A DNA stretch of 64,000 nucleotides, taken from contig CAZEMR010000002.1 of the NCBI GenBank assembly GCA_964513465.1, positions 57,479 through 121,478 on the forward strand, read 5' to 3'. Shown piece by piece: positions 38,666 through 56,580 of this stretch; the first letter of the stretch is position 1; each line of letters opens with the position of its first letter. The notes under the pieces were generated by a model. That model was not told the origin of the DNA. It was given only the letters and a program-made list of their open reading frames with translations, and searched no databases. Origin of the DNA: an uncultured Hyphomicrobiales bacterium (GTDB lineage Bacteria; Bacteroidota; Ignavibacteria; Kapaibacteriales; UBA2268). The position numbers were made by a program, and so were the translations under genes.

Positions 38666-38682
38666 CCGGACCGGACATAGAT

Positions 38683-40731
38683 ATGCTCAATAAACTCAGT
38701 ATTGGCGCCAAATTGCTGATTCTCATCCTTGCCAGCGTTTTCGCGATTTTTGCCGGGATGTATATATATCATTATTTCGTTTCGCGCGCGGCTATTATGA
38801 ATATCGTCCACCGCGAATCTCACAAAACCGCACTCGCTACGGTCAACCGTATCGAGGAGATACTTGGCTCGGTCGAGCGCATTGCCGGGAATATGGCCAA
38901 TTATGCTTCCACGGCGGAATTTTCTACCGGCGAAATTCATAAATATCTTACTTCGACAGTTTCTTATAATGATATAATCTTCGGCGCAACAATGGCTTAC
39001 GAGCCGTTTGCGGCCGACAGCACAATCCGCTATTTTGCGCCATATTACTACCGAAAGGACGGCGCGCTTGGCTATGTCGATCTTGCCGATCCGGATTATT
39101 TCTACCCGAAATGGGGCTGGTATAACCGTCCCCGCGAGGAGGGCCGCGCGTTATGGACAGAGCCATACTACGACGAGGGCGCCGGCAATACGGTGATGAC
39201 CACATATTCCGTGCCGATTTATAAAAATACGGACGGGCGGAGGCAATTCGCCGGGGTGGTGACAAATGACGTCTCGCTTGGCTGGCTGCGGCGCTTTTTC
39301 GATTCGATGTCTTCGTATAAATCCAGCTATTTCTTTTTAATATCGAAGGATGGCACATTTATTTCGCATCCGGATTCCAATCTTATAATGAAAGAAACGA
39401 TTTATTCGGTGGCCGAGCGTCTGGGCGACAGCGTGCTTGCCGGGATTGCCAATCGGATGACATCCGGCGCGACCGGGCTGACGGATTACACAAGCAAAAT
39501 CAGCGGAGTCGAGGGATTTATATATTATATGCCGCTGCGCTCGGCGGAGTGGTCGCTGGGTATTATGTTCAGCGACGACGAGGTGATGGCCGATATGATC
39601 GAATTGAACCGCGAGATTATCATAATCGGGATCGTCGGATTGTTGGTATTAATTATTATCATAATATTAATTTCGCGGACAATCGCCCGGCCGCTGCGCT
39701 ATGCCACCAATGCCGCCGAAGAGATTGCCGAAGGCCGTCTCGATTCGGCCGCGCGGCTTACGGATGAATATCTCGATAAATCCGGGTTGAATAAATATAT
39801 AAATAAATCCACCAAAAATGAATCTATCAGATTATTCGCCGCAATCCGCAAAATGGCCGACAATCTGAATTCGCTCATAAGCCAGGTGCAGCGCTCGGGG
39901 TCGCTCGTTTCGAGCTCGACGTCCGAGATTGCGGCCTCGGCGCGCCAGCTTGAGTCCACCGCCGCCGAGCAGGCCGCCTCGACCAAAGAGGTCACCGCCA
40001 CCAGCCGCTCAATCGCCGACACCGCCGATAAACTGGTCGACACCACAGGCGAGGTGGGCGACAACGTCAGCCGCGCCGCTGCCTCGGCCGAAAGCGGCCG
40101 CGCGGACCTTGCCCGGATGAAGCAGACCATGGATTCCCTGAGCGGCGCCACGCGTTCGATCTCGAAAAAGCTCTCTATTATTAACGACAAGGCCGGGAAG
40201 ATTTCGGCGGTGATTACTACAATCAATAATATCAGCGACCAGACCAATCTGCTTTCGCTAAATGCCGCAGTCGAAGCCGAAAAAGCCGGCGAATACGGCA
40301 AGGGCTTCTCGGTCGTCGCGCGCGAGATAAGCCGGCTATCGGAGCAGACCGCCATTGCCACCCAGGACATCGAATACATGGTGCGAGAAATGCAAAGCTC
40401 CGTGCGCACGGGGGTTAACGAAATGGACAGCTTTGCGCGCGAAATCAAAAGCTCTGTGGGCGAGGTTACTACCATCGGCAGCCATCTGGCTGGTATCATC
40501 GATATGGTAAACAGCCTGAAGCCGCAATTCCGAATGCTGGACGAGGGGATCGGCGGCCAGAGCGAGGGCGCCGGCCAGATAAGCGAGGCCATGACCCAGC
40601 TTGCCGAGGCCAGCGAGCAGACCCGGCAGTCGCTCTCGGAATTCAAGCGGGCCACCGAACAGCTCAACGACGTTGTGCTGAGCCTTCAGCAGGAAGTATC
40701 TAAATTCAAAGTAAAAGAGGATGCCCAATAA
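38683..40731 (+). CDS. methyl-accepting chemotaxis protein (dCache-like sensor)
   Basis: Same architecture as MCP 1. Signalling domain [28 protein letters not shown]. Confidence 0.85.
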
Positions 40732-42828
40732 ATGAGAAAATTACGCGGAAGACTCAGAATCGCCCATAAATTGCTGCTGAGCTGCATATTTTTCGCAATC
40801 CCGATCGGGGTGCTGCTGTGGTATGTGGTCGATGGCCACAATCAGCATATTCGCTTTGCCGAAAAGGAGCGCTCCGGCGCAGAAATAATTGCAAAGGCCG
40901 CCCCTGCGATGGAGCTGATTGCCGAATTCGCAATCGATGATTATATCGCCCGGGTCGGCGGCGAACAGGATTATCGCAGCGCCGAATCCGAAAAGCGCAT
41001 CCATAAGGCGCTGGCCGATCTGGAGCATTTTGCGGGTAAATATTCCGAAATTATGGATTTATCCTCCGGACGGCTCGGGGAGATTGGCAAATCGGATATT
41101 CTGCCGGGGAATATTATGAAAAAATGGGATGTATTTCTGCGCGAAAAATCAGATTTGGGCAATGAGGAATTATCCGAAAATTATATGATTTTTTTGCAAA
41201 ATATTAATTCCCTGATCCGGTATATCGGCGATAAATCCAATCTGATACTCGATCCCGATCTGGATTCGTATTATATGATGGATATTTCGCTGCTTGCGAT
41301 GCCCGATCTGACGCGGCGGCTGGCGGAGTTCACGATAAACGCCGCGAATGCCGCAGCCGATACCGCCGGAAATACCGATATTCCGGGATATATATATAAT
41401 GTGGCGGTCAATGATCTTCTGCCTCGGATCGTAAGCGATGCGGAGGTCTCCGTGCGCGAGGATGCCACTTTCCATGGCGATCATCCCGCCCTCGGCGAGG
41501 ATATGGTCAATAAAGCCTCCGAATTCCGGAACAGAATTGAGAATTATCTGGCAAAATGGCACAGCCCCGGCGCGCAGCCGCTCCGATCGCTTGCGGCTGA
41601 TTCGCATCAGTCCTTTTCGCAGATGCGGGAGTTCTGGCTCGTCTCGAATTCCACGCTGATTGATTTATTAAATAAAAGAATTGATTATTATCAAACCAGA
41701 AAATGGACATCGCTGGCGATCAGTCTGGCGGCCGTTGCGTTAGCCGCGATCGTCGTATTTCTGATTGCGCTGGGCATATCCCGGCGCCTGCGGAGCGTTA
41801 CGCGGATAACCAGCGACATCGCAATGGGCAACATCGCCGGTGCAAAGGAAGCGCTCGAAAAATGCCGCAATCGCGGTACCGGAGTGCGGCTCGATTCGCC
41901 CGGTGCGGCCAAAACCCGCGACGAGAGCGTGATATTGCTTCAGGAAATAAATATTATGACCCACAATCTCGATTCGCTGCTCTCGGAGGTGCGCAATACG
42001 GGTATTCGGATGACCAGCTCGGCGACGGAGATTTCGGCATCGGCGCGCCAGCTCGAATCGACAATCACCGAGCAGGCAGGCTCGATTAATCAGATAAATT
42101 CCACCAGCCGCGAGATTGCCGCAAATTCTGGCGATCTTTCCGATACGATGAAGCTATTGCTCGATCAGGCATCCGAGGCTGCGCGCGTATCCCATAGCGG
42201 AGTCGAGGCGCTCGACGAGCTGAACGAAACCATCCACGCGCTGATTGATTCATCCGAGGAAATTGCCGAAAAGCTCAGCTTTATAAGCTCCAGCGCGACG
42301 AATATCGGCGAGGTGATAACGACGATTACAAAGGTAGCCAATCAGACGAATCTGCTGTCGCTCAATGCCGCAATAGAAGCCGAGAAAGCGGGCGAGGCGG
42401 GCGTCGGGTTTGCCGTCGTTGCGCGCGAGATCAGGCGCCTGGCCGACCAGACAGCCGTCGCCACGCTCGACATCGAGGATATGGTGCGTCAGATGGACGC
42501 CGCCATTCGCGAGGGCGCCGCCGCGGTTGATAATAATTCGCGCCAGCGGGACGTTTCTCAGGAAAAGATTGGCAGGATCAGCAGGGAGTTTACTGTGATA
42601 ATCGACCAGACTCGCGAGATTGAACCCAGATTCGGCGAGGTAACCGAGGGCATGAACGCCCAGAGCGAGAGCGCCCTCACGATAAGTGATGCGATGGCAC
42701 GGCTCAACGATGCCGCGCGCCAGACCCGCGAGGCAATCGGCGAATTCAACCAGGTGACCGCTGCGCTGCGCGATTCGTCCCAGAATCTGCAGAAAGAGCT
42801 TGGGCGATTCAGAACGGAGCAGGAGTAA
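40732..42828 (+). CDS. methyl-accepting chemotaxis protein (helical periplasmic sensor)
   Basis: TM, ~290-aa sensor, TM, HAMP, then an MA domain ([28 protein letters not shown]). Starts 1 nt after MCP 2. Confidence 0.85.
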
Positions 42829-42834
42829 ATATAT

Positions 42835-43299
42835 ATGCTGCTGCTGCTTATGAATATCGGCGATGATTTTTATGCGATCGACATCGACCGTATAGTCGAG
42901 ATCGTGCCATTCGTCAACCTCAAAAAAATCCCGCAGATGCCGCGCTATATCGGGGGTATCCTGAATTATCGCGGACGTCTGACTCCGGTGGTCGATATAT
43001 CCGAATTGCTCGCCGGGCGGCCCACCCCGCCGCTGTTCAGCTCGCGGATAATCCTCGTCAGGTATCGCGGCGTCGATGGCGAAAATCATACGCTGGGCCT
43101 GCTCGCCGGGGCGGTGACCGAGACGATAAATGTTAATCCCGAGCAGATTCAAAGCTCGGGCATAGAGGTAGAAAACGCGCCGTTTCTGAAGGATATAATA
43201 ATCGACGAGCGGGGGATGATCCAGCGAATCGATATTGACAAAACATTGCCAAAAAATATTCACGAAGCCTTGTTCAGATCCGGTGAGGGCGATGCGTAA
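42835..43299 (+). CDS. cheW: chemotaxis coupling protein CheW
   Basis: 154-aa CheW-like domain (FYAIDIDRIVEIVP...GGILNYRGRLTPVVD). Confidence 0.8.
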   Translation: MLLLLMNIGDDFYAIDIDRIVEIVPFVNLKKIPQMPRYIGGILNYRGRLTPVVDISELLAGRPTPPLFSSRIILVRYRGVDGENHTLGLLAGAVTETINVNPEQIQSSGIEVENAPFLKDIIIDERGMIQRIDIDKTLPKNIHEALFRSGEGDA

Positions 43300-44536
43300 T
43301 GCCCAGCTCAAATATCTGATCGAGCGCCGCCTGGGGTTTGATATCGAGACGCTTGGCGCGAGCTACGTCGAAAACGCCGTCCGCCGTCTGAGCGAGAGCT
43401 CGGGCGCGCAGGAAATCGAGGATTATGTTACGAGGGTTGCTGGCTCAACTGAAATGATGGCCGCGCTCATCGAGGAAATTGTCGTACCCGAGACATGGTT
43501 TGTCCGCGACAGCGGGGCATTCGATTTTTTGAAAAATTTTGCAAAAAAAATTCATCCGGAAAAGGGCGGGCCGCTGCGGATACTCTCTGCGCCATGCTCC
43601 ACCGGCGAGGAGCCCTATTCGATTGCGATAGCTTTGCATGAAGCCGGCCTCGGCGCGGAGGATTACTCAATCGAGGCCGTCGATATCAGCTATTGTGCTA
43701 TCGACAAAGCCCGCGCCGCCGAATACACGAAGAATTCCATGCGCGGCGCAAGCAATGAATTCATAGAAAAATATTTTGATCGCGCCGGGGATAAATATAT
43801 ATTAAAAAAGGGATTCAGGCGGAATGTGGAATTTCGGCAGGCCAATATTCTCGATCCGGGATTTGCGGGATCGCGCGCCGAATTCGACATCATATTCTGC
43901 CGCAATCTGATGATATATCTGCGCCCGGATTCGCGGCTGCGGCTGTTCTCGGCGGTCGATCGGCTGCTGCGGCCCGGGGGTGCCCTTTTTACGGGGCATT
44001 CGGAGATAATGTTTTTCAACCGGGCGGGTTATTCTCCATCTGGCGCCGCGCGTTCGTTTGCTTTGATTAAAAATGAAGAGCATGATGCGCCGGCTGCGCA
44101 GGAGAAAAAATTCCCCGATACGAAAAAATATTTGAAAAAAATTCGTGAAAATGCCCGGAAAGATAGAAAACGGCCAATAATTGCTCCGAAGTTCGAAATT
44201 CCGGAGCGGTCAAAAGCACCGGCCGCGGAGGATGCGATATCCGCTAAGTCCGTGCGCCGGCTGGCGGATATGGGGCGCTACGACGAGGCGCTAAGCGGCT
44301 GCGAGCAATTGATCGCCGAGCGCTCGCCCCAAGCGGAACTCTATTATTTGGCGGGACTTATCAACGAAGCGCTGGGCAATTCCGCCCGCGCGGCCGAAAG
44401 CTACAACAAGGCGCTCTACCTCGATCCGGAGCATTACGAAACGCTGATAAATTTATGCTTATTATCCGAAAAAATGGGTGACCTCCGCAAGGCCGAATTG
44501 CTCCGGCGGCGCGCGCAAAAGATTGATTTTAAATAA
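43292..44536 (+). CDS. cheR: chemotaxis protein methyltransferase CheR with C-terminal TPR repeats (FrzF-like)
   Basis: The start is taken at the in-frame ATG 43292, overlapping the cheW stop. The CheR SAM-binding core is LRILSAPCSTGEEPYSIAIAL. C-terminal TPR (AELYYLAGLINEALGNSARAAESYNKALYLDPEHYETLINL). Confidence 0.8.
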   Translation: MRNAQLKYLIERRLGFDIETLGASYVENAVRRLSESSGAQEIEDYVTRVAGSTEMMAALIEEIVVPETWFVRDSGAFDFLKNFAKKIHPEKGGPLRILSAPCSTGEEPYSIAIALHEAGLGAEDYSIEAVDISYCAIDKARAAEYTKNSMRGASNEFIEKYFDRAGDKYILKKGFRRNVEFRQANILDPGFAGSRAEFDIIFCRNLMIYLRPDSRLRLFSAVDRLLRPGGALFTGHSEIMFFNRAGYSPSGAARSFALIKNEEHDAPAAQEKKFPDTKKYLKKIRENARKDRKRPIIAPKFEIPERSKAPAAEDAISAKSVRRLADMGRYDEALSGCEQLIAERSPQAELYYLAGLINEALGNSARAAESYNKALYLDPEHYETLINLCLLSEKMGDLRKAELLRRRAQKIDFK

Positions 44537-44550
44537 ATTAATATATATAT

Positions 44551-45201
44551 ATGGAAAACAAAAAAGAAGAACGGTGCTGGAAGACGATCGGCGTATTGGG
44601 CGACGGAAGCTGCGAGCAGCTCGATAAATTCGTCCACTGCCGCCACTGCCCGGTATATTCGACCGCGGGCCGGAATATTCTCGACCGCCCGGCGCCGGAT
44701 AGCGTCGTCGAAGAATGGACGCTCAACATAGCCAGCGAAAAAGAAACCGAGCCGCCGGATACCATCCCGCTCGTGATTTTCCGGATTTATGGCGACTGGC
44801 TGGCGCTGCGGGCATCGGCATTCCAGGAGATGATCGACGTTCGCGAGGTGCACTCGGTGCCATTCCGCACCAACCGCTTTTTCCGCGGACTGGTCAACGT
44901 CAACGGCGAGCTTCTGCTCTGCCTTTCGATGGCCGCGCTGCTGGATATAATGCAGTCCGGCGAGGATAAATTCTCGCGGATGATCGTCGTCCGAAGCGGC
45001 GCCGACCGCTATGTTTTTGCAGTTCACGAAATGCCCGGCGTCTTGAAAATTCCTACGGAATCGATCGGCAAAACGCCATCGACTCTGGCGAAATCGCCGA
45101 TGGCCTTCTCGCGAGGAATATTCGAATTCGACGGCAAAAAAGTCGGCATGATCGACGAAGCATTCTTTTTTGATTCGATCGCAAGGAGGTTAGTCTGGTG
45201 A
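44551..45201 (+). CDS. CheW-like protein with N-terminal Cys-rich (putative zinc-binding) extension
   Basis: N-terminus CWKTIGVLGDGSCEQLDKFVHCRHCP (C-x10-C-x8-C-x2-C), then a CheW domain (VIFRIYGDWLALRASAFQEMIDV...GLVNVNGELLLCLSM). Confidence 0.7.
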   Translation: MENKKEERCWKTIGVLGDGSCEQLDKFVHCRHCPVYSTAGRNILDRPAPDSVVEEWTLNIASEKETEPPDTIPLVIFRIYGDWLALRASAFQEMIDVREVHSVPFRTNRFFRGLVNVNGELLLCLSMAALLDIMQSGEDKFSRMIVVRSGADRYVFAVHEMPGVLKIPTESIGKTPSTLAKSPMAFSRGIFEFDGKKVGMIDEAFFFDSIARRLVW

Positions 45202-48200
45202 GCGAAAATCAGAATTCGGCCGATATGTTCATGCTGGAGCTGTTCCACACGGAGGTGGAGAACCACGCGCGGACGCTGGAGGAGGGCCTTGTGCGGGTCG
45301 AGGACGATCAGTCGGCGTCGGCGATCGAGCCATTGATGCGTGCGGCGCATTCGATAAAGGGCGCGGCGCGGATAGTTGGTCTGGACGATGCTGTAACATT
45401 GGCCCACGCGATGGAGGATGTTCTCACCGCTGCGCAATCGGGCAAGCTGCGGCTCGGGCAGGCGATAATCGACGAATTGCTCGGCGGGAATGATATTTTT
45501 ATCGATACGATTGACCAGCCAGTTGGCGAAATCGAATCATTTTTTAAATCGAATAAAGAAAAAATCGAGCAAATTTCGAATAATCTGAAAAAATTGATGT
45601 CCGGCGAGAAGCCTGCGTCACAGACCGAATCACAGCCAAAGCCGGCTCCCGAGCCAAAACCCGCACCCCCGAAAAAAGAAGAGCCTCCACAAAAAAATGA
45701 GCCAAAACAGGAATCCGGCGGGGCGGATATGTTTATGCTGGAGCTGTTCCACACGGAGGTGGAGAACCACGCGCGGACGCTGGAGGAGGGCCTTGTGCGG
45801 GTCGAGGACGATCAGTCGGCGTCGGCGATCGAGCCATTGATGCGTGCGGCGCATTCGATAAAGGGCGCGGCGCGGATAGTTGGTCTGGACGATGCTGTAA
45901 CATTGGCCCACGCGATGGAGGATGTTCTCACCGCTGCGCAATCGGGCAAGCTGCGGCTCGGGCAGGACGACATCGATCTGCTGCTCGATTGCAATGATAT
46001 ATTTATAAAAATAATCGATATTTCGCCCGGGGAAATCGAGGGCTATCTTAAGTCGCAGAAAGGGGATATCGAAAATCTGGCCGGAGAGCTGCGCAAAGTA
46101 TTATCAGGCGAACCGCGCGCCGTTAAACCGGTGGAGGCCCCGCCTGAAGAAGAAATTACTCTCGAAAAATTCAGAGAAATTCTAGCGAAAAATTCTTCGC
46201 TGCTTGAGGTCGGACTAATCGAATCCGAGGGCGCGCAGTCGGAGGAATCGCTTCGTGAGCTGGCCGGATTATGCGCAGAAATACGGGAATTATCAGGGAA
46301 ATTCGATTTCCGGACGCTCGGGGAAATGCTCGGCGGGATGGAAAAGGCGCTAAATGCCGCGGCTCGCGGCGAAATCGCACTTGCCGCAGCCGAGATAAAT
46401 TTATTGCTGCGCTCTAATGACGTACTCGCCAGCATCGCCCAGATGGAAGCCTCGGAAATCGAAGATATTATCATCAGCGAATCGGGGATAATCGAGGAAT
46501 TCACCGGCGAATTGCGCGAAATTCCGCAAAAGCGGCCGCCGCGAAAACTCGAATCCGCCGAGCTGCGCGACCCCGCGGAAGCCAGCGACGAAGAGCTTGC
46601 CGATTTCCGCGACCAGGTGGCCGACAGCGCTCTGGTGCTTGAGCGCGGAATAGCCACTGAGGAAGGCATTTCCGCTGAATTTGCGCCAATGATGCGCGCG
46701 GCGTGGTCGATACGCGATGCCGCGCGGAATGTTGGATTCACCAGCATCACACGGCTGGCGGCGGCCATGCAGAGTATGTTCGGGGCTGCGTTCCACGGCC
46801 GGATAGAGCTCTCGGGCGAGCAAATCGAATGGCTTCGGCGGGGAGCCGGAGCGCTCCGCGAGATGATTAGCGCCGGGGCGATGGAACTGCTTGATATATA
46901 TATAAATAAGACGGATGCGATCGACGATCTCGTCCGCCTGATAAGCGATTTCCTGGGCGAGGAGATGTTGCTGCCACCCGCTCCTAAGACAGAAAAGCCG
47001 AAGGAGCTGCCGGCACAGCCCGCCAAAAAAGATTCGCCGCCAAAGCCGGCCGCGCCGGAGCCTCAGGCGCCTCGGCAGGACGACAGCTTCGTTCGAGTGC
47101 TTTCGCAGAATTTAAATAAATTGATGGGGCTGTCGGGCGAGACGCTTGTCAAAGTTAAATCAATTAAGCCATTTTCTACGAATTTACTCGAAATAAAAAA
47201 TTTATTATTCGAATTTAATTCCCTTCACGAAAATATTGTCCAGAATCTTGAGGACAACCCCGCGCTGCCCGAATCGTGGCGGCTTAAGCTGGGCGAATCA
47301 TCCGAAAAGCTCGGCGATATCCGGCAGTTGCTACTCGGGCATATCGATGATTTCGAGATGTTTTCGCGGCGCCTCGAAAACGTCGCAGAGCAGCTATATT
47401 CCGAAGCCGTCGCCACCCGGATGAAGCCATTCGCCGAGGGATTGCACGGCTTCAACCGGATGGTGCGCGATGTGGCCAAAAAGCTCGGCAAGCGGGTGAA
47501 TCTGCGCATCGAGGGCGAATCCACACGGGTCGATCGCGATATACTCGAAAAGCTCGAAGCGCCGCTGAATCATCTGCTGCGCAATGCGGTCGATCACGGA
47601 ATCGAGACCATCGAAGATCGTGAGCGGAAGGGCAAACCCGCCGCAGGAACGCTGACGCTCAGCGCGCGGCACCGCTCGGGAATGCTTATTATCTCGCTTA
47701 AAGACGACGGCCGCGGAATCGATCCCGCGAAGCTGCGCCGCAAGGTAGTCGAAAAGGGCTATGTCAGCGAGGAGATGGCCGCAAAATTATCCACGCCGGA
47801 ATTGATGGATTTCCTCTTTCTGCCGGGATTCTCGACGGCGGAGAAGGTCACGGAAATCTCCGGGCGGGGCGTGGGACTCGACGTCGTATTCTCGATGGTA
47901 AGCGAGGTCGGGGGCACCGTCCGCGCTGATTCGGCGCCGGACGAAGGCACCACATTTTTGCTCGAATTGCCGCTGACGCTCAGCATATTGCGGACGCTGC
48001 AGGTCGGAATCGCCGGCGAGTCGTACGCATTGCCGCTCTCGCGGATCGACCGGATTTTCGATATAAAGGAAGACAACCTTAAAACAATCGAGGATCGGCA
48101 GTATTGCGTATTCGACGGCGAAAACATGGGCATCGTCGATGCCCGCAAGGTGCTCCGGCTCGGCGAGCGCGAGGAATTTTCCGAAAAAATTCATCTGGTA

Positions 48201-48827
48201 ATAATCAGCGACCGGCTGAACCGCTACGGCGTGGTGGTCGATCAGTTCCTTGGCGAGAAAGACCTCGTCGTCATCCCGCTCGACAAAAAGCTGGGCAAGA
48301 TCCCCAACATCAGCTCCGGCGCGATAATGGAGGACGGCTCGATCGTGCTCATACTCGACATCGACGACATGGTGCGCTCGGTGGACGATTTGCTTAATCG
48401 CGAAAAATTAAATATAAAGGAACGCGGCCGCGCAAAAATCGCTCAATTGCGCAAGCGGATTCTCGTTACCGATGATTCGCTTACCGTCCGCGAGGTCGAG
48501 CGCAAGCTATTGGAAAACGCCGGTTATGACGTAACTCTGGCGGTCGATGGCGCCGACGGCTGGAACAAGCTTAGCGCCGGTGAATTCGATCTGGTGATCA
48601 GCGACGTCGATATGCCGCGGATGAACGGCATCGAATTTGTTTCGAAAATCCGGAGCGAAGTCAGATACCGCGATTTGCCGGTAATGATTGTATCATATAA
48701 AGATCGGGAAGAGGACAAGCTGCGCGGACTTGATGCGGGCGCAAATTATTACCTGACCAAAAGCAGCTTTCACGACGAAACGCTGCTCGAGGCGGTGCGC
48801 GACCTGATCGGGGACGCCCGCGAATGA
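45198..48827 (+). CDS. cheA: hybrid chemosensory histidine kinase CheA-CheY (ChpA/FrzE-like) with two identical Hpt domains, a degenerate third Hpt-like domain, HATPase, CheW-like and C-terminal receiver domain
   Basis: Hpt motif AAHSIKGAARIVG occurs twice, and AAWSIRDAARNVG occurs once. CheA-type HATPase (NAVDHGIE...GRGVGLDVV). CheW-like region. REC (ILVTDDS...ISDVDMP...TKS). Pro/Lys-rich linkers. Confidence 0.85.
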   Translation: MSENQNSADMFMLELFHTEVENHARTLEEGLVRVEDDQSASAIEPLMRAAHSIKGAARIVGLDDAVTLAHAMEDVLTAAQSGKLRLGQAIIDELLGGNDIFIDTIDQPVGEIESFFKSNKEKIEQISNNLKKLMSGEKPASQTESQPKPAPEPKPAPPKKEEPPQKNEPKQESGGADMFMLELFHTEVENHARTLEEGLVRVEDDQSASAIEPLMRAAHSIKGAARIVGLDDAVTLAHAMEDVLTAAQSGKLRLGQDDIDLLLDCNDIFIKIIDISPGEIEGYLKSQKGDIENLAGELRKVLSGEPRAVKPVEAPPEEEITLEKFREILAKNSSLLEVGLIESEGAQSEESLRELAGLCAEIRELSGKFDFRTLGEMLGGMEKALNAAARGEIALAAAEINLLLRSNDVLASIAQMEASEIEDIIISESGIIEEFTGELREIPQKRPPRKLESAELRDPAEASDEELADFRDQVADSALVLERGIATEEGISAEFAPMMRAAWSIRDAARNVGFTSITRLAAAMQSMFGAAFHGRIELSGEQIEWLRRGAGALREMISAGAMELLDIYINKTDAIDDLVRLISDFLGEEMLLPPAPKTEKPKELPAQPAKKDSPPKPAAPEPQAPRQDDSFVRVLSQNLNKLMGLSGETLVKVKSIKPFSTNLLEIKNLLFEFNSLHENIVQNLEDNPALPESWRLKLGESSEKLGDIRQLLLGHIDDFEMFSRRLENVAEQLYSEAVATRMKPFAEGLHGFNRMVRDVAKKLGKRVNLRIEGESTRVDRDILEKLEAPLNHLLRNAVDHGIETIEDRERKGKPAAGTLTLSARHRSGMLIISLKDDGRGIDPAKLRRKVVEKGYVSEEMAAKLSTPELMDFLFLPGFSTAEKVTEISGRGVGLDVVFSMVSEVGGTVRADSAPDEGTTFLLELPLTLSILRTLQVGIAGESYALPLSRIDRIFDIKEDNLKTIEDRQYCVFDGENMGIVDARKVLRLGEREEFSEKIHLVIISDRLNRYGVVVDQFLGEKDLVVIPLDKKLGKIPNISSGAIMEDGSIVLILDIDDMVRSVDDLLNREKLNIKERGRAKIAQLRKRILVTDDSLTVREVERKLLENAGYDVTLAVDGADGWNKLSAGEFDLVISDVDMPRMNGIEFVSKIRSEVRYRDLPVMIVSYKDREEDKLRGLDAGANYYLTKSSFHDETLLEAVRDLIGDARE
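45221..45966 (+). repeat. tandem direct duplication inside cheA: two ~245-bp copies (about 45221-45462 and 45725-45966, period 504 bp) with a 232-bp perfectly identical core
   Basis: Nucleotide-identical block atgctggagctgttccacacgg...ctgcggctcgggcagg in both copies. The reverse-frame ORFs 45024..45437 and 45630..45941 in the track share an identical 69-aa peptide, confirming nucleotide identity. Confidence 0.85.
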
Positions 48828-49861
48828 GAATAGGGATCGTCAATGACGTATCGCTGGCGGTAGAGGTGCTGAGGCGCACTATCCACCAGCAGCCCGGACT
48901 CGAAATCGCATGGGTGGCATTCGACGGCGAGGAAGCCGTCCGCAAAAATGCCGACGACAAGGCCGATCTGATACTTATGGATCTCTTGATGCCCGTGATG
49001 GACGGAGTCGAGGCCACCCGGCGGATTATGACCGAAAACCCCACGGCGATTCTGGTGGTGACATCGACAGTAACCGGCAATTCCGGAAAGGTATTCAGCG
49101 CAATGGGTTATGGCGCGCTGGATGCGGTTTGCACCCCCGTATTCGGTCCGGGCGGGAAGATAGAAGGCGCCCGCGATCTGTTGAAAAAAATCGCCACGAT
49201 CGGGAAATTAATTGGCAAAGAAAATATTGAATTAGTAAATCATAATTCGGAAAATGATAATTGCAAAGGCGAACTCCCGCCGATGGTGGCTATCGGCTCA
49301 TCGACCGGCGGGCCGCGTGCGCTGGCGGATATACTCACATGGCTGCCAGGGGATTTTCCTGCGGCGGTGGTGGTAGTCCAGCATGTGGATTCGCAGTTCG
49401 CGCGGGGGCTGGCCGACTGGCTCGACGATCAGACCTCGCTCCGGGTCAAGGTCATCCGCGAGGGCGACCACGCCGAAAAGGGGTATATATATATTGCGGA
49501 AACGAACGACCATGTGGTGCTCGACCGCGACCGGACTTTTTATTATACCCCCGAGCCGATGAATTATCATTACCGGCCATCGGTGAATACATTTTTCAAA
49601 AGTCTTAACGAAAACTGGCCGCGGCGGGATGTGGCGGTAGTGCTCACCGGTATGGGCGACGACGGCGCAAAGGGTTTGCTCGCGCTGCGCGAGGCCGGAT
49701 GGCACACAATCGCACAGGACAAGGAGACATCGGTGGTTTACGGAATGCCCGGTGCGGCGGCCCGGCTGAATGCGGCCATCGAGATATTGCCCGTCGAAAA
49801 AATTGCAGAATCAATTATTAAAAATATTAATAAAAAGGCTAATACAAATGCAGCAAAATGA
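48824..49861 (+). CDS. cheB: chemotaxis response regulator protein-glutamate methylesterase CheB
   Basis: REC domain (LILMDLLMPVMDG) plus methylesterase domain (VAIGSSTGGPRAL, VVVQHVDSQF, DGAKGLLALREAGWHTIAQD). 4-nt overlap with cheA. Confidence 0.85.
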   Translation: MRIGIVNDVSLAVEVLRRTIHQQPGLEIAWVAFDGEEAVRKNADDKADLILMDLLMPVMDGVEATRRIMTENPTAILVVTSTVTGNSGKVFSAMGYGALDAVCTPVFGPGGKIEGARDLLKKIATIGKLIGKENIELVNHNSENDNCKGELPPMVAIGSSTGGPRALADILTWLPGDFPAAVVVVQHVDSQFARGLADWLDDQTSLRVKVIREGDHAEKGYIYIAETNDHVVLDRDRTFYYTPEPMNYHYRPSVNTFFKSLNENWPRRDVAVVLTGMGDDGAKGLLALREAGWHTIAQDKETSVVYGMPGAAARLNAAIEILPVEKIAESIIKNINKKANTNAAK

Positions 49862-51047
49862 ATCAACCCAATTGGATACGAATATTACCGAATATAAAAT
49901 CAAGGTGCTGCTGGTCGATGACCAGGCTATAGTCGGCGAGCAGGTGCGGCGGATGCTCCAGCCCGAGGAGGACATCGAATTCCATTTCTGTCAGGAACCC
50001 TCGAAGGCCGTTCAGACCGCCGCAGAGCTGAATCCCACGGTAATCCTGCAGGATCTGGTGATGCCGGATATCGATGGTCTGACGCTGGTCAAATTCTTCC
50101 GCGCGCACCCACAGCTCAAGGATGTGCCGATGATCGTGCTTTCGTCGAAGGAGGAGGCCGTCACCAAGGCGGACTCGTTTGCCACCGGCGCGAATGATTA
50201 TCTGGTCAAACTGCCCGACCGCATCGAGCTGGTTGCGCGAATTCGTTACCACTCAAAGGGTTATATACATTTACTCCAGCGCAACGAGGCCGAGGACAAA
50301 TTGCGCAAAAGCCAGAAGGCGCTGCTCTCGGAGCTTGCCAAGGCCGGCGAATATTGCGTTTCGCTGCTGCCCGAGGAGATCGACGAAGGCGACATCCGCA
50401 CCCACTGGCGATTTGTGCCATCCGAGCAGCTCGGCGGCGATTCATTCGGCTACCACTGGGTTGATGATGACCACTTCGCGATGTATCTGCTCGACGTATG
50501 CGGGCATGGCGTCGGGTCGGCATTGCTCTCGGTTTCGGGCCTGAACGCAATGCGGATGCAGTCGCTGCCGAACACGGACTTCCGCAGCCCGGAGAGCGTC
50601 TGCAACGGGCTGAATGCGGCATTCCAGATGGAGGCCCACAACGACATGTATTTCACGCTATGGTATGGCGTTTATAATAAAAATTCGCGAGAGATGAAGT
50701 TTGCCACCGCAGGCCATCCGCCGGCGCTGCTCTACGACGCGGCCGGAAATTGCAAACAGCTTATGAACGAGAATTTCATAATCGGCGGGTTGCCCGAATT
50801 TCCGTATAGCGAGAGCTCGACCGAGGTTGCGCCGGGCTCGAGGATGTATATATATTCCGACGGGGTTTACGAAATCACGCGGCCTGACGGCTCGATGTGG
50901 GACCTCGACGGTCTGGAGGATTACATGCGCGAGCCGCACGATGGCTTCGAATCGGAGATCGAGGCGCTTCACCGGCATGTGCAGTCGATGAGCGGCCTCG
51001 AGATTCTGGACGACGATTTCTCGATGCTTAAGATCATATTCGATTGA
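49848..51047 (+). CDS. response regulator fused to PP2C/SpoIIE-type serine phosphatase (RsbU/RssB-like output module)
   Basis: The internal start MQQNEST overlaps the cheB end by 14 nt. REC domain (VLLVDDQ...LQDLVMPDIDG...YLVKL). PPM domain (GGDSFGYHW...LLDVCGHGVGSALLS...TAGHPPALL...YIYSDGVYE). Confidence 0.8.
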   Translation: MQQNESTQLDTNITEYKIKVLLVDDQAIVGEQVRRMLQPEEDIEFHFCQEPSKAVQTAAELNPTVILQDLVMPDIDGLTLVKFFRAHPQLKDVPMIVLSSKEEAVTKADSFATGANDYLVKLPDRIELVARIRYHSKGYIHLLQRNEAEDKLRKSQKALLSELAKAGEYCVSLLPEEIDEGDIRTHWRFVPSEQLGGDSFGYHWVDDDHFAMYLLDVCGHGVGSALLSVSGLNAMRMQSLPNTDFRSPESVCNGLNAAFQMEAHNDMYFTLWYGVYNKNSREMKFATAGHPPALLYDAAGNCKQLMNENFIIGGLPEFPYSESSTEVAPGSRMYIYSDGVYEITRPDGSMWDLDGLEDYMREPHDGFESEIEALHRHVQSMSGLEILDDDFSMLKIIFD

Positions 51048-52516
51048 TTTTCAATTTCATAAAGATTAATTCAATGAAAATTAGATATTTTTCGCTGATT
51101 GCTCTGCTGCTGGTAATTTCCCTGAATTCCTGCGAGCAGACCACTATCGAGCGCCCTGGGCCGAAGAATATTATCATCATGATCGCCGACGGCGCGGGCT
51201 ATGACCATATTCAGATCGCAAATTTATATGAAGAGGGCAAAACCGAAGCCCAGCCTTATGAGCAATTCCCCGTGCGGTATTTCGTGAGCACCTATCCGGC
51301 GCTCGCGGGCGATTATTATGATGCGCTGGAAAATCATGCAAATTCCGGATATAGTCCATACGAGACCTGGCATGATTTCGACTGGCGGCGGCATGGATTC
51401 ACCGGCTCGGGCGCGGCATCGACGGCAATGGCCACAGGAATGAAGACCTATAACGGCGCGATTGGCGTCAATATCACCGGACAGCCGCTGCTGAATATCA
51501 CAGAGCGCGCCAAGGATATGGGCAAATCCGCAGGGGTGGTGAGCTCGGTGCAGTTTGCTCACGCAACCGCGGCCGCATTCAGCGTACACAACACGGACCG
51601 CGATAATTATCCCGAAATCGCCCGCGATATGCTGATCAAAAGCCGGCTGGACGTGATCATGGGCTGCGGCCATCCCTATTATGATAATGATGGTAAAATC
51701 CGTCAGAATGCGCTAAGTTTTAAATACGTCGGCGACAGCCTGTTATGGTCGGAAATCCACGCCGGAAAAGCCCGAGTACGGCGCGGCAGCGGTATTGAAG
51801 TCGATCTGGCCGACGTCAACGGCGACGGCCAGCCGGATGCATGGGAGCTGATCGATAATATCGAGGAATTCGAGAATCTCGCCCAGGGCGAGACCCCGCT
51901 GCGGGCGCTTGGAGTGGCGCCCAATATATATACATTGCAACAAGCGCGCGGCGATTCGATTGCCGGAATGATGAATGCCTACGATTATCCGTTTATCGAA
52001 AAAATGCCCTCGCTCGAAACGATGACCGCGGGCGCGCTGAACGTGCTGGATAATAATAATTCGGGATTTTTCCTGCTGATCGAGGGCGGAGCGATCGACT
52101 GGGCGTCGCACAGCAACCAGAAAGGACGCCTGATCGAAGAGATGAGCGAATTCAACAAAGCTGTCCGCCGGGTGATCGACTGGATAGAGACAAGCAGCGG
52201 ATGGGACGAAACATTGCTGATCGTAACCGCCGACCACGAAACGGGATACGTCGCCGGCCCGGACTCCGGGGGCGATCCGCCGCAGTGGTTCCCTCCGCTT
52301 AATAACGGCAGGGGGAATATGCCCGGATTCGATTTCCACAGCACAGATCACACGAATGCGCTTGTGCCGCTTTACGCAAAGGGCAAGGGCAGCGAGCTGT
52401 TCGCGGAATATGCCGACGAATACGATCCGGTGCGCGGCGAATTTATTACCAATAGCGAGATCGGCCAGCTTTTGTTCCGGCTGTTCGGACGCGGCAAGGC
52501 GTTGAGGGATAAGTGA
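51044..52516 (+). CDS. alkaline phosphatase (PhoA family) lipoprotein
   Basis: IIIMIADGAGYDHI (the second serine nucleophile region follows). DWASHSN and TADHETG metal-binding motifs. Lipobox LLVISLNSC. Confidence 0.85.
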   Translation: MIFNFIKINSMKIRYFSLIALLLVISLNSCEQTTIERPGPKNIIIMIADGAGYDHIQIANLYEEGKTEAQPYEQFPVRYFVSTYPALAGDYYDALENHANSGYSPYETWHDFDWRRHGFTGSGAASTAMATGMKTYNGAIGVNITGQPLLNITERAKDMGKSAGVVSSVQFAHATAAAFSVHNTDRDNYPEIARDMLIKSRLDVIMGCGHPYYDNDGKIRQNALSFKYVGDSLLWSEIHAGKARVRRGSGIEVDLADVNGDGQPDAWELIDNIEEFENLAQGETPLRALGVAPNIYTLQQARGDSIAGMMNAYDYPFIEKMPSLETMTAGALNVLDNNNSGFFLLIEGGAIDWASHSNQKGRLIEEMSEFNKAVRRVIDWIETSSGWDETLLIVTADHETGYVAGPDSGGDPPQWFPPLNNGRGNMPGFDFHSTDHTNALVPLYAKGKGSELFAEYADEYDPVRGEFITNSEIGQLLFRLFGRGKALRDK

Positions 52517-54252: not shown

Positions 54253-56580
54253 TTAACTCCTTTGGTCCAGTTCGATAATTTTTTCGACGATCAGCGCCGC
54301 GCAGAAGGCCGCCGCTTTTTTGCGCATAATCGGGAATCCCATGTATGACGCAATCGGCAGAGTCCACTCGAGCATTGCCAGCAGGTATGGCCGCATGTCG
54401 CGCTCGAAAATAGTCGTGCGGTCGGCATAATTGCGCAATTTCGAGATTATAACATAGGCTTTTTCATAGGCCGGGTCGTCGCTTGCGCAGGTGAATCGCG
54501 GAAGTTCGCTGATCAGATTCTGCATCAAAAGCCCCTGTTCGAATTCTATCACATGGGCGATTTCCTCGTCGGAATCAATGGGCAGCATTTCGAATTTGAT
54601 AATCGGTTCGAGCCGCGCAAAGTCCGATACGATATTGCTTTCGCGGGTTTCCGAAAAGTCGATTACATATATATTTTCGTCCTCGTCGAGCAGAATATTC
54701 TTCATATTCAGGTCGCCATGGATGACGGATTTATACCCTGTGATTTCCTGGTTTTTTCTTTTGGGGAATTCATTTTTTAAAAAATGGAATGGGTTACGCA
54801 CGCTGCGCCCAAGGCAGGGGCAGTGGATCATTTCGTCGCTGCTGTCGATTCCGAGTTCGCTTTTGGCGTCTTCGCATATCGTACTGAAGAGCCTGCCCGG
54901 GTAGTGCTCGTCGTAGAGCCGGACGGGGGTCATGCGGGGCTGGCCGTACCAGGGCTTGAGCACATGGGTGAATACCCGGTCGAAAATTTCGGCGACTTCT
55001 TCGGCGGGGCGCTCCTGAAAATGCTTCTCGAGCCATTCGATACGGCTGTCGGCGCCGCCGATTCCGACGAAATTATACCTTAGCCCGGCGTAATCTCGAT
55101 AGCTTGTGCGGCCCATGACCGAGGTGCTGTTGTTTAAGATAAATTTTTTGACAAAATTGGAATATGCGTTCTCTTCGCGCCGGATAGCTTCCTTCGAAGC
55201 GATCTTCAGCACGGTGGGGAGCTGGCGGCGGCCGTCGCGGTCGAAGCTGTTTACGAGGAATGTGCGCGCGGAGAATCCTCCGGTAAGCGGCTTGAGCACA
55301 ACTTTGCCGGAATCGCCGTAAATTCTGCGGATAATTATATTGAATTCCTCCGGGAAATCCGATTCGCCCTCGAATTCGATTTTAATGCGCTTGTGGGTGC
55401 CGGGGCGGACGTCTTCTGGAACGAAGAGCCAAGCGGCAAAGCGGCCGATATCCGAATCGGGCGAGATATTGCCGACGCCTCCGAGCCGCTCGAGATCGGC
55501 AATGTCGCGGATTATTTCGTTGTGGGTTTTGTCAAGATTTTCGGTATCGAATTTATTCAAAAAAAGTGCGTTCATACGGACATAAATGCCATCTCCTGCT
55601 GCATATTCGTCGAGGGCAGGAAAGAGGGGCTCTTTGACGGATTCGCGGCGCTCGGCGATTCCGACGACGAATGCCGCGGCCGGGGTGACCGGCTGGGTGA
55701 TACGATGGCCGGCCGAGAAGTCATCGGAATCCTCAAAATGCGATGCGAATAATTTTTTTGATTCGCAATATGCGCAAAAGGCGATTCGTTCGGGCTTTTT
55801 ATCTGATGATTTTTCCGCTGCCGAAAAAAAGTCTTTAACGGCTTCATGAATCGGCAGGATTTTCTGTTCGGCGAATTTGATTTCTGCGCAGGGTTTCCCG
55901 TTGATGCCGAGCATCGAGACTGCGTCGATCTCCAGCTTCGATGAGTCCTCGGCGATGAAATAGTCGGCCACGCTGTTGCCATCGGCTGCGATAGCTCCGG
56001 CGATATGGTGGGCGGCAATAAATTCGCCGGGAGCGGCTTCGGTGCCGTCCGATCCGCTGAATCCGGCAATGCCGACTCCGAGAGGGATTTCGTCGAGAAA
56101 TAATTTTTCGATGGATTTTTCCGTTTCCGGAGAATTTTCGCTGCGGCCCCATAGCTCGAGTATACACTGCGATTCGGGGAATTCCATATAGGTATATTCC
56201 CGGCCGCCTGAGCTGAATTCGCTGCGGGTATCGATGGCGAGCTTTTCCGACAGCACGTGCTTCAGCGCTTCGTCGGGGGTGTCGTACATCGTTACCGAGC
56301 GGTCGAGTCCGGACATCGAGATTGCGCTCATTGCGTCGCCCGAGAGCGCGCAGAGGATAGAGCGTCCTCCGCGGCTGCGCATGTTTTTTTCGATTTTCAG
56401 CAGGGAGCGGATTCCTACGCTGGAAATATAATTAACCCGGCCCATATTGATAATGGCATAGCATCTGCTTTCGGGGATATCGGCGGCGCGGGAGTCGAGA
56501 TCGCGGGCGCCGACAGCATCCAGCCGTCCTTCGAGAACGAGAACCGGCACGGAATTTTTTTCTGTAATCTGGATTTCCAT
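54253..56580 (-). CDS. novel fusion: N-terminal STAS (anti-sigma-factor antagonist, SpoIIAA-like) domain + ~320-aa domain of unknown function + C-terminal APH/protein-kinase-like fold domain
   Basis: The STAS domain is VLVLEGRLDAVGARDL...AIINMGRVNYISSVGIRSLL...GGRSILCALSGDAMSAISMSGL, with the conserved Ser within ISSVG. The kinase-like region has an N-lobe (GKVVLKPLTGGFSARTFLV...LPTVLKI) and a catalytic loop (VIHGDLNMKNILLDEDENIYVIDFSETR) of the APH/ChoK/ePK-like type. The gene lies between hemB and hemL in one operon. Confidence 0.6.
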   Translation of the reverse strand: MEIQITEKNSVPVLVLEGRLDAVGARDLDSRAADIPESRCYAIINMGRVNYISSVGIRSLLKIEKNMRSRGGRSILCALSGDAMSAISMSGLDRSVTMYDTPDEALKHVLSEKLAIDTRSEFSSGGREYTYMEFPESQCILELWGRSENSPETEKSIEKLFLDEIPLGVGIAGFSGSDGTEAAPGEFIAAHHIAGAIAADGNSVADYFIAEDSSKLEIDAVSMLGINGKPCAEIKFAEQKILPIHEAVKDFFSAAEKSSDKKPERIAFCAYCESKKLFASHFEDSDDFSAGHRITQPVTPAAAFVVGIAERRESVKEPLFPALDEYAAGDGIYVRMNALFLNKFDTENLDKTHNEIIRDIADLERLGGVGNISPDSDIGRFAAWLFVPEDVRPGTHKRIKIEFEGESDFPEEFNIIIRRIYGDSGKVVLKPLTGGFSARTFLVNSFDRDGRRQLPTVLKIASKEAIRREENAYSNFVKKFILNNSTSVMGRTSYRDYAGLRYNFVGIGGADSRIEWLEKHFQERPAEEVAEIFDRVFTHVLKPWYGQPRMTPVRLYDEHYPGRLFSTICEDAKSELGIDSSDEMIHCPCLGRSVRNPFHFLKNEFPKRKNQEITGYKSVIHGDLNMKNILLDEDENIYVIDFSETRESNIVSDFARLEPIIKFEMLPIDSDEEIAHVIEFEQGLLMQNLISELPRFTCASDDPAYEKAYVIISKLRNYADRTTIFERDMRPYLLAMLEWTLPIASYMGFPIMRKKAAAFCAALIVEKIIELDQRS

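Follow-up and report, generated by a model that had tools for sequence, protein, structure and literature searches.

Tandem Hpt Domains of a Wsp-Like CheA-Receiver Kinase Share a Perfect Nucleotide Repeat, Probably through Gene Conversion

The kinase gene of a Wsp-like chemosensory operon, located in a 64-kb stretch of DNA (referred to here as the window), encodes two tandem Hpt domains that are identical over 232 bp. Most probably, the identity reflects an old duplication followed by recent and ongoing gene conversion, which would make the two domains interchangeable, and homogenisation of this type appears to be recurrent in the family. Multi-Hpt CheA-receiver kinases with His-less Hpt domains have already been described, and the system is not of a new kind. 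A literature search found no report of concerted evolution or gene conversion of identical, tandem, or duplicated Hpt domains.

The operon and its kinase

By Pfam annotation, the operon encodes three MCPs, CheW, CheR-TPR, CheW, CheA-REC, CheB, and REC-PP2C, in the following arrangement:

36464 to 42828, forward strand: three tandem MCP genes (Pfam)
42835 to 43299, forward strand: CheW (Pfam)
43235 to 44536, forward strand: CheR with a TPR tail (Pfam)
44551 to 45201, forward strand: second CheW-like protein (Pfam)
45198 to 48827, forward strand: CheA-type hybrid histidine kinase of 1209 amino acids, Wsp-like (open reading frame list, Pfam)
48824 to 49861, forward strand: CheB methylesterase (Pfam)
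49770 to 51047, forward strand: REC-PP2C phosphatase, SpoIIE-type (Pfam)

The signalling domains of the three MCPs are 61-80% identical at the nucleotide level; one protein has a Cache_3-Cache_2 sensor and another a dCache_1 sensor, while the third has no recognised sensor domain. The REC-PP2C phosphatase is likely to be the output of the pathway. The same gene order is found in Singulisphaera acidiphila, in two other assembled loci (L085 and L086), and at 23 of 86 loci. No Pil-type genes (pilG/H/I/J/K) were detected when the genes of the operon and several open reading frames around it were scanned with Pfam.

To which class does the kinase belong? The order MCP-CheW-CheR-CheW-CheA/REC-CheB, with the receiver fused to CheA, is that of the ACF class, and JGI names homologues of the kinase WspE. 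However, the gene after cheB encodes REC-SpoIIE/PP2C and not a WspR-type REC-GGDEF protein; the system is therefore Wsp-like and not strictly Wsp. Judged by gene order and by the names that homologues carry in their source databases, the kinase is a Wsp-like (ACF-type) CheA-receiver hybrid. The original prediction had called the gene cheA, which holds for the CheA type but not in the sense of a classical cheA.

The kinase gene has a GTG start and a 4-nt overlap with the upstream stop, and NCBI calls the same start in a second assembly (L003, described below). Hpt, HATPase_c, CheW, and Response_reg domains are recognised by Pfam, and the protein has the hallmarks of the CheA family: a phospho-accepting N-terminal Hpt, and HATPase_c followed by a CheW-like domain. 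The order is Hpt, Hpt, two degenerate Hpt-like domains, kinase core, CheW-like domain, and receiver:

45218 to 45462, forward strand: repeat copy 1, 245 nt, perfect part 45231-45462; helices A-C of Hpt1
45463 to 45721, forward strand: diverged remainder of unit 1, with Hpt1 helix D/E and a Pro/Lys-rich linker; homologous to 45967-46225, synonymous sites saturated
45722 to 45966, forward strand: repeat copy 2, 245 nt, perfect part 45735-45966; helices A-C of Hpt2
45967 to 46145, forward strand: diverged remainder of unit 2, with Hpt2 helix D/E followed by the first part of the second linker (copy comparison, codon statistics)
46152 to 46493, forward strand: third Hpt-like domain (residues 319-432), in which Ala replaces the phospho-His (family-specific HMM, 65.5 bits)
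46587 to 46922, forward strand: fourth Hpt-like domain (residues 464-575), in which Trp replaces the phospho-His, AAWSIRDAARNVG (HMM, AF2, Foldseek)
47559 to 48380, forward strand: kinase core, HATPase_c (P4, residues 788-927) and CheW-like P5 (934-1061) (Pfam)
48459 to 48797, forward strand: C-terminal receiver domain, residues 1088-1200 (Pfam)

The first two domains score 57.5 and 57.8 bits against the Pfam Hpt model. His51 of Hpt1 (CAT, 45348-45350) aligns with the phospho-His of Thermotoga maritima CheA P1, and its equivalent in Hpt2 is His219 (45852-45854). The third domain has no match in the Pfam scan; the AF2 model is a five-helix bundle with high pLDDT, and its best fold matches in Foldseek are CheA P1 domains. 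The fourth scores 25.8 bits, barely over the Pfam cut-off for Hpt. Thus, the Trp-bearing domain, counted earlier as the third, is actually the fourth, and the earlier comparison with ChpA, whose Xpt domains lack the His, is reasonable, with the correction that two domains are degenerate, one with Ala and one with Trp. Neither bundle can take phosphate on His; both probably serve as spacers or docking modules. In the kinase core, HATPase_c scores 62.5 bits and CheW 60.4 bits, and NCBIfam CheA models cover residues 725-1059. The H-kinase_dim (P3) match is weak (E = 0.22, 12.4 bits, residues ~630-665), and this domain is poorly conserved according to a survey of CheA proteins (PMC10782961).

A perfect repeat within diverged units

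Position-by-position comparison bears out the repeat as first described: 45231-45462 equals 45735-45966 over 232 bp without a mismatch, in frame and at an offset of 504 bp. Alignable homology of the copies begins at 45218/45722, and 5' of the perfect run there are just two mismatches, both synonymous: 45221 C versus 45725 G (GCC/GCG, Ala) and 45230 C versus 45734 T (TTC/TTT, Phe). As was also noted, both copies encode the same 81-residue peptide and are joined by a Pro/Lys-rich linker, SGEKPASQTESQPKPAPEPKPAPPKKEEPPQKNEPKQESGG. A repeat search reports the pair as 285 nt at 94% with a spacing of 504, and this is the sole near-perfect repeat in the entire window. Given the flanking identity, a perfect run of 232 bp would be expected by chance with a probability of about 1e-55. 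The block spans helices A-C, including the phospho-accepting His, so that the reported duplication of the Hpt (P1) domain is right as to two Hpt copies but the block is less than a whole P1 domain. Within it, only 2 of 77 degenerate codons for the same amino acid differ between the copies, although copy number two and interior identity rest on assemblies, and short-read assemblers may pop bubbles and so overstate identity.

Could the Hpt unit simply have been duplicated in tandem very recently, without gene conversion? Such a duplication predicts that the full 504-bp unit is identical. The 5' half has no interior differences, whereas in the 3' half a gap-free alignment of the units extends over more than 50 codons, with 54.5% of the nucleotides identical, and the linkers are not alignable beyond ~45620. 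The 52 aligned codons next to the block (codons 90-141) are 50% identical in amino acids and 33% at third positions, and 13 of the 26 codons that specify the same amino acid differ. Perfect identity does end at the block, as had been seen, but divergence is not immediate in the sense of lost homology. A non-homologous 3' half, created by an unrelated insertion, would revive the duplication; the gap-free alignment at 50% amino acid identity speaks against it. Moreover, the paralogue-specific sites at the block edge flip between strains (see below). The family does show unit duplications (P0003 compared with P0034, and P0018 with P0024), and the repeat at L086 is identical over nearly the whole unit. 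For the window kinase, however, the saturated synonymous divergence in the rest of the unit contradicts a very recent duplication and makes this explanation decidedly unlikely.

The features of the copies are those of concerted evolution, in which paralogous stretches are identical, including at synonymous sites, and have mosaic tract boundaries. In the window kinase, a patch of identity that includes synonymous sites lies inside diverged units. Gene conversion, which the original prediction had offered as one option, is favoured by this patch and by the edge sites.

Independent assemblies and strain variation

Is the repeat real? An assembly artefact would mean that one true Hpt unit was expanded, or that differing copies were collapsed into one consensus that was traversed twice. 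The sequence is metagenome-derived, and the contigs of two other metagenome-assembled genomes (MAGs) end exactly at the repeat, which shows that assemblers struggle there. The window was compared with two independent MAG assemblies, GCA_046542925.1 (L003) and GCA_048615515.1 (L001). The L003 contig runs through the upstream operon, copy 1, and the linker and ends after 55 nt of the copy-2 block; the L001 contig has the last 33 nt of copy 1, the linker, complete copy 2, and downstream sequence. A further contig, L002, begins 5 nt past copy 2. From these extents it follows that each repeat junction is observed at least twice, and all four junctions are present in two MAG assemblies other than the window. 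Short-read contigs stop at the repeat, as a true long identical repeat predicts. In three assemblies, the unique linker (45463-45721) has the block on both sides, which needs at least two copies, while several interior differences would have made the graph resolvable and left the contigs unbroken.

Strain variation also argues against an artefact: the assemblies are separated by SNPs and so come from independent populations. At position 45221 the window has C, whereas L003 has G, the copy-2 base; at position 45734 the window and L003 share T, whereas L001 has C, the copy-1 base. Both sites are at most 13 nt from unique flanking sequence, which links these polymorphisms to their copies. Copy 2 of L001 also has a private synonymous change within the block (45932 C>A), and this contig has only the end of copy 1. 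The strain evidence for conversion amounts to two or three sites. Similar perfect repeats are also present in two other assemblies and in S. acidiphila, an isolate with a finished genome. Together, these observations make an artefact very unlikely.

Further searches recovered few close relatives. An exact 30-mer of the block had no matches in JGI metagenome contigs or GTDB species-representative genomes. When the N-terminal 340 amino acids served as a protein query, the partial L003 protein was the sole near-identical match, and no single- or three-copy variants were found. Exact-protein look-up of the window kinase and of two homologues (P0122 and P0017) gave no match; look-ups with both CheW proteins recovered L003 alone, and the upstream contig of GCA_048615515.1 was not found.

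Finally, it is hardly credible that selection on the nucleotide sequence itself (RNA structure, an internal regulatory site, or another embedded element) keeps the copies identical: the block is G+C-rich (0.60-0.64) with a strong positive GC skew, against an AT-rich linker, but no Rfam family matches across 38-53 kb, the antisense open reading frames have no family match, freezing 75 of 77 synonymous codons is implausible, and the equally perfect repeats of other lineages differ widely in sequence, which points to copying and not to a conserved element.

Recurrence among homologues

Orthologous kinases were compared, as the original prediction had proposed. Of 105 multi-Hpt homologues, 15 have two Hpt domains within the protein that are at least 90% identical to each other, and in five the identity is 100%. 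The finished genome of S. acidiphila encodes three Hpt units, of which copies 1 and 3 share a perfect run of 335 bp. Two Singulisphaera species have the same three-copy layout, and similarity is greater within genomes (94-100%) than between species (88-93%). Likewise, the Hpt copies of homologues P0043 and P0036 are 100% identical within each genome but 90% identical between genomes. The evidence for such an excess of within-genome similarity over positional orthologues comes from these two comparisons; the species of the window has no close relative with both copies. Perfect blocks of 375 bp, with diverged linkers, and 447 bp are present at L085 and L086, respectively.

In most homologues, however, the Hpt copies are differentiated and show positional orthology (diagonal identities of 80-99%, off-diagonal 40-60%). 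As far as the sequences compared indicate, homogenisation is sporadic and not the rule. Among 80 GTDB loci, the only Hpt-spaced perfect runs were those at L084 (77 bp) and L006 (47 bp), which were rejected as conversion tracts: they sit on the conserved His motif.

Copy number also varies. A first pass found no such variation among very close relatives, with cores at least 85% identical; lowering the threshold to 70% gave the borderline pair P0003/P0034, listed at 85%, and more distant pairs. P0003 has one unit more than P0034 (core 85%), and P0018 one more than P0024.

A model of conversion between Hpt copies

How might the present arrangement have arisen? Long ago, a 504-bp unit of Hpt plus linker would have been duplicated in frame, giving two tandem Hpt (P1) modules. 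Recently, non-reciprocal homologous recombination, presumably of the RecA type, would have written some 232-245 bp of one copy onto the other, wiping out the differences in helices A-C while helix D/E and the linkers kept their old, saturated divergence. Compared with Hpt1 of P0006, the nearest homologue, helix D shows about the same similarity in either copy, which favours neither direction of conversion. Since the edge of the tract varies between strains, exchange between the copies is probably still ongoing in the population.

On this model of conversion, His51 and His219 would be interchangeable phospho-acceptor modules with partner-contact surfaces that are identical over helices A-C. The P4 kinase domain would phosphorylate both Hpt domains, from which phosphate may pass to the kinase's own receiver, CheB, and the REC-PP2C output. 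Wsp-like orthologues in other phyla sporadically show the same homogenisation, which is therefore probably a family-level tendency of tandem Hpt arrays and not a one-off; this tendency would consist of concerted evolution with occasional duplication of units.

A further idea, which we consider improbable, is that the tandem Hpt arrays of this Wsp-like kinase family with PP2C output are evolvable modules driven by recombination: conversion would keep several acceptors matched to a single set of receivers, and RecA-mediated unequal exchange between identical in-frame blocks (504 bp = 168 codons) would alter the number of units. If so, populations would contain kinases that differ in the number of phospho-acceptors, allowing heritable tuning of signalling gain or phosphate buffering.

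The proposal of gene conversion has consequences for how these proteins are studied. The Hpt domains of some chemosensory kinases may not always be differentiated modules, with copies overwriting one another repeatedly and in several phyla. Positional orthology would then be erasable, which affects the comparison and classification of Hpt copies. MAG assembly and annotation are affected as well, where contig breaks at the repeat yield 'partial' Hpt proteins. A further question is why two equivalent phospho-acceptor sites should be retained in one kinase.

Comparison with known systems

WspE of the Pseudomonas Wsp system (ACF class) shares with the window kinase the gene order MCP, CheW, CheR, CheW, CheA-REC, CheB, the lack of a P2 domain, and the C-terminal receiver. 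The output gene differs, REC-PP2C (SpoIIE-type) in the window and REC-GGDEF WspR in Wsp; no characterised Wsp-like system with a PP2C output was found in the literature search. The window kinase also has four N-terminal Hpt-type domains, in contrast to one in homologues of WspE length (~764 amino acids).

In the survey by Berry, Andrianova and Zhulin (2023; PMC10782961), 18% of CheA proteins have at least two Hpt domains; a C-terminal receiver is present in more than 90% of these multi-Hpt CheAs, and ~93% of them belong to the ACF or Tfp class. The window kinase fits the survey's description. Its subject is domain architecture; it does not use the word 'identical', nor does it discuss homogenisation of copies (PMC10782961). 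ChpA of the P. aeruginosa Pil-Chp system (Tfp class) likewise combines multiple N-terminal Hpt domains with a C-terminal receiver, and some of its Hpt-like domains lack the His and are unphosphorylated in vitro (PMC10782961). However, ChpA belongs to another chemosensory class and operon, the window operon being without pil genes, and identical Hpt copies of ChpA are not mentioned in the survey (PMC10782961), whereas the window copies are nucleotide-identical over helices A-C. CheA3 of R. sphaeroides has one intact, phosphorylatable N-terminal Hpt followed by structurally Hpt-like domains without His (PMC10782961). In having His-less domains after a phosphorylatable Hpt it resembles the window kinase; CheA3, however, has no functional kinase domain and partners with CheA4, while the kinase core in the window is complete.

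Gene conversion is known to keep bacterial duplicates alike, as in tufA/tufB of Salmonella, rRNA operons, and the repeat domains of surface proteins. In contrast to cases of the tufA/tufB type, the partners in the window are two signalling domains that lie 504 bp apart within one gene.

A perfect repeat within the kinase gene

A single ORF (45198-48827, + strand), which encodes a Wsp-like CheA-receiver hybrid kinase of 1209 amino acids, contains both copies of the Hpt repeat in frame. The original prediction had described a 232-bp block without mismatches, occurring twice at a spacing of 504 bp, and comparing each base of 45000-46300 with the base 504 nt downstream bears this out. Homology starts at 45218/45722; after two synonymous mismatches (45221 C vs. 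45725 G and 45230 C vs. 45734 T), the next 232 bases are identical (45231-45462 and 45735-45966). Repeat-finding on the window returns the same 45218/45722 pair, which a whole-window scan identifies as the sole near-perfect repeat in 64 kb. The 81-residue peptide is the same in both copies, and a Pro/Lys-rich linker does separate them. The repeat is genuine and far beyond what chance would produce.

The two Hpt blocks have a G+C content of 0.60-0.64 with a strong positive GC skew of 0.26-0.30 (45175-45474 and 45700-45999), and G+C falls to 0.38 over helices D/E and the start of the linker (45475-45624). Swings about as large occur across the operon. An Rfam scan of 38-53 kb gave no match, and antisense ORFs across the repeat are without any family match.

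Pfam recognises Hpt (three stretches), HATPase_c, CheW and a C-terminal receiver in the kinase, and His51 aligns with the His that accepts phosphate in the Thermotoga maritima CheA P1 domain. A family-specific HMM, made from 120 homologues, finds four Hpt-type domains:

Residues 9-123: Hpt1, His at the His column
Residues 177-291: Hpt2, His at the His column
Residues 319-432: third Hpt-type domain, Ala at the His column
Residues 464-575: fourth Hpt-type domain, Trp at the His column

The Pfam Hpt model scores the fourth domain marginally (25.8 bits) and does not recognise the third. An AlphaFold2 model of residues 300-600 contains two five-helix bundles (mean pLDDT 87.8), and its top structural matches are CheA P1 domains (TM normalised to target: 1i5n 0.81, 1tqg 0.82, 3kyj 0.76). 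The Trp-bearing domain noticed earlier is thus real by both HMM and model; it is the fourth and not the third, with the Ala domain preceding it.

Is the repeat an assembly artefact?

The species is represented by three independent assemblies, which were compared: the window, GCA_046542925.1 (contigs L002 and L003) and GCA_048615515.1 (contig L001). L003 corresponds to window 38763-45789; it takes in the upstream operon, copy 1 and the linker, and ends 55 nt into the copy-2 block. L002 starts at 45971, 5 nt past copy 2. L001 begins within copy 1, 33 nt from its 3' end (45430), and continues across the linker, the complete copy 2 and downstream. In all three assemblies the unique linker is flanked by the block on both sides, and therefore at least two copies are required. 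Both short-read assemblies break at the repeat, as would be expected of a long, truly identical one. Moreover, 5-9 SNPs separate the other contigs from the window, so the assemblies represent separate populations. It is possible that there are more than two copies, or that a few interior differences were smoothed out by the assembler.

Because contigs of the two public MAGs end at the repeat (L001 position 1, L002 position 1, L003 position 7027), the NCBI annotation splits the kinase into two or three 'partial' proteins. An N-terminal protein search returned many Hpt-only partial proteins from other taxa, which may stem from the same contig-break problem.

An old duplication and a probable young conversion tract

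Was the Hpt module duplicated recently, or have two old copies been made identical? A fresh tandem duplication would leave the whole 504-bp unit of Hpt and linker identical; its 3' part is diverged instead. Beyond 45462 the units can be aligned without gaps for at least 52 codons, over which identity is 50% at the amino-acid level, 54.5% at the nucleotide level and 33% at third positions. Codons specifying the same residue differ in 13 of 26 cases beyond the block and in 2 of 77 within it, both at the 5' edge. Protein-level selection is unable to freeze synonymous sites.

Since the unit 3' of the block is diverged, synonymous sites included, gene conversion is preferred to fresh duplication. 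The original prediction had allowed for either; the mosaic of identity upholds the former, and the 3' divergence tells against the latter. Judged by sequence pattern, the identity is that of a putative gene-conversion tract over helices A-C of the Hpt bundle. The tract's 5' limit is where homology stops, and its 3' limit falls between helices C and D. Old Hpt paralogues of this family typically show a short peak of 90-100% identity at the His motif, with helices A-C otherwise at 60-76%.

The only two 5'-edge sites that separate the copies both vary among strains, the alternative base in each case being that of the other copy. Position 45221 is C in the window and G in L003 (G in copy 2), while 45734 reads T in both the window and L003 but C in L001 (C in copy 1). 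Both sites are unambiguous in assembly because they lie at most 13 nt from unique flanking sequence. A rough calculation from counts, using ~1-2 SNPs per kb and 75 alignable paralogue-distinguishing sites, puts the chance of such matches at ~1e-4. L001 also carries A>C at 45467 (its position 38), 5 nt beyond the 3' block edge, giving the copy-2 base; the four differing bases between this site and the block are unconverted in L001, and the match may be a coincidence or a complex conversion edge. Copy 2 of L001, on a contig without copy 1 apart from its last 33 nt, has a private synonymous C>A at 45932 inside the block. Exchange between the copies is probably ongoing.

Overall, the likely explanation is gene conversion, recent and probably still under way, between two old Hpt modules that stand in tandem in a Wsp-like CheA-receiver kinase. 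RecA-type homologous recombination between copies 1 and 2 would be its cause.

Hpt homogenisation in related kinases

Concerted evolution through gene conversion is a well-known process. How common are near-identical Hpt copies among relatives? Among 105 multi-Hpt proteins within the top 120 matches, 15 contain an intra-protein Hpt pair at least 90% identical (100% in five), and 24 have at least one domain whose set-wide nearest neighbour lies inside the same protein. Most lineages have clearly differentiated copies with obvious positional orthology. Homogenisation is thus sporadic.

Outside the species, the closest homologue is P0006 (kinase core 66% identical), which carries three Hpt-type domains (H, H, R). 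Hpt1 and Hpt2 of the window kinase are both closest to its first domain (59-60%), and for this reason the pair looks like a lineage-specific yet ancient duplication.

The finished genome of Singulisphaera acidiphila (CP003364, L004 8001-9500) encodes the same operon, REC-PP2C included, with three Hpt units in tandem. Copies 1 and 3, although not adjacent, are nearly identical, with a perfect run of 335 bp; copy 2 between them is ~92% identical to both. Singulisphaera sp. Ch08 has the same three-copy layout, and identity within genomes (94-100%) exceeds that between species (88-93%), which marks these units as a case of concerted evolution. Two further loci with this operon type, L085 and L086, have perfect Hpt blocks of 375 and 447 bp, respectively; the linkers of L085 are diverged, a mosaic as in the window. 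Their proteins (P0043/P0036) show 100% Hpt identity within and 90% between genomes. Unit gain is also seen: the homologues P0003 and P0018 each exceed their relatives by one unit.

The operon and its output

The neighbours of the kinase gene, assigned with Pfam, are tightly packed on the + strand in the order three MCPs (two with Cache sensors), CheW, CheR with a TPR tail, second CheW, kinase, CheB, REC-PP2C (SpoIIE-type) and alkaline phosphatase. The main features are:

36464-42828, +: three tandem chemoreceptor genes (Cache_3-Cache_2; dCache_1; one without a recognised sensor)
49770-51047, +: REC-PP2C (SpoIIE-type) phosphatase, the likely pathway output; weak match to Pseudomonas RssB
51044-52516, +: alkaline-phosphatase-family gene directly 3' of the REC-PP2C gene (4-nt overlap by ORF call)
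54253-56580, -: 775-aa protein, N-terminal STAS (anti-sigma antagonist) fused to a TCAD9/APH kinase-like region
58694-61456, -: 920-aa protein with Omp28, several Ig-like (ASH/Cep192/HYDIN-type) and T9SS C-terminal sorting domains

The MCP signalling domains share 61-80% nucleotide identity at regular spacings of 2054 and 2103 bp; in contrast to the Hpt pair, these genes have no homogenised block. The alkaline-phosphatase-family gene is found at the matching place in L002. The STAS-TCAD9/APH gene lies ~3 kb downstream of the REC-PP2C gene on the opposite strand, and its product is a possible partner-switch target of that enzyme. The Omp28/T9SS protein fits a Bacteroidota-related host, and near-identical database entries are annotated as Bacteroidota or Candidatus Kapaibacterium MAGs.

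Recombination between the blocks would remove or add one unit, and would stay in frame because the unit is 504 bp (168 codons); no variants of this kind were observed. As to function, His51 and His219 would both be phosphorylated by the P4 domain, and the phosphate passed to the kinase's own receiver, CheB and the REC-PP2C output. The His-less domains of ChpA are not phosphorylated in vitro (PMC10782961), and by analogy the Ala and Trp domains may be non-phosphorylatable spacers or docking modules.

Comparison with known systems

The gene order is that of Wsp, and JGI names many homologues of the kinase WspE, but the output gene differs. Of 86 loci, 23 (within L004-L086) have a Wsp-like operon that closes with REC-PP2C in place of REC-GGDEF; the arrangement is conserved across Kapabacteria, Desulfobacterota, Acidobacteriota, Planctomycetota, Verrucomicrobiota and Chlamydiae-type MAGs. 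No literature characterising such an operon was found, and within the searchable library nothing relevant concerned identical, tandem or duplicated Hpt domains or Hpt gene conversion. A survey of CheA architectures reports at least two Hpt domains in 18% of CheAs and His-less Hpt domains in ChpA and CheA3; identical Hpt copies are not mentioned there (PMC10782961). Since multi-Hpt and His-less CheAs are reported in that survey, the window kinase is of a known type. It represents a tidy case of a recurrent, previously unremarked evolutionary behaviour of Hpt arrays and not a new system.
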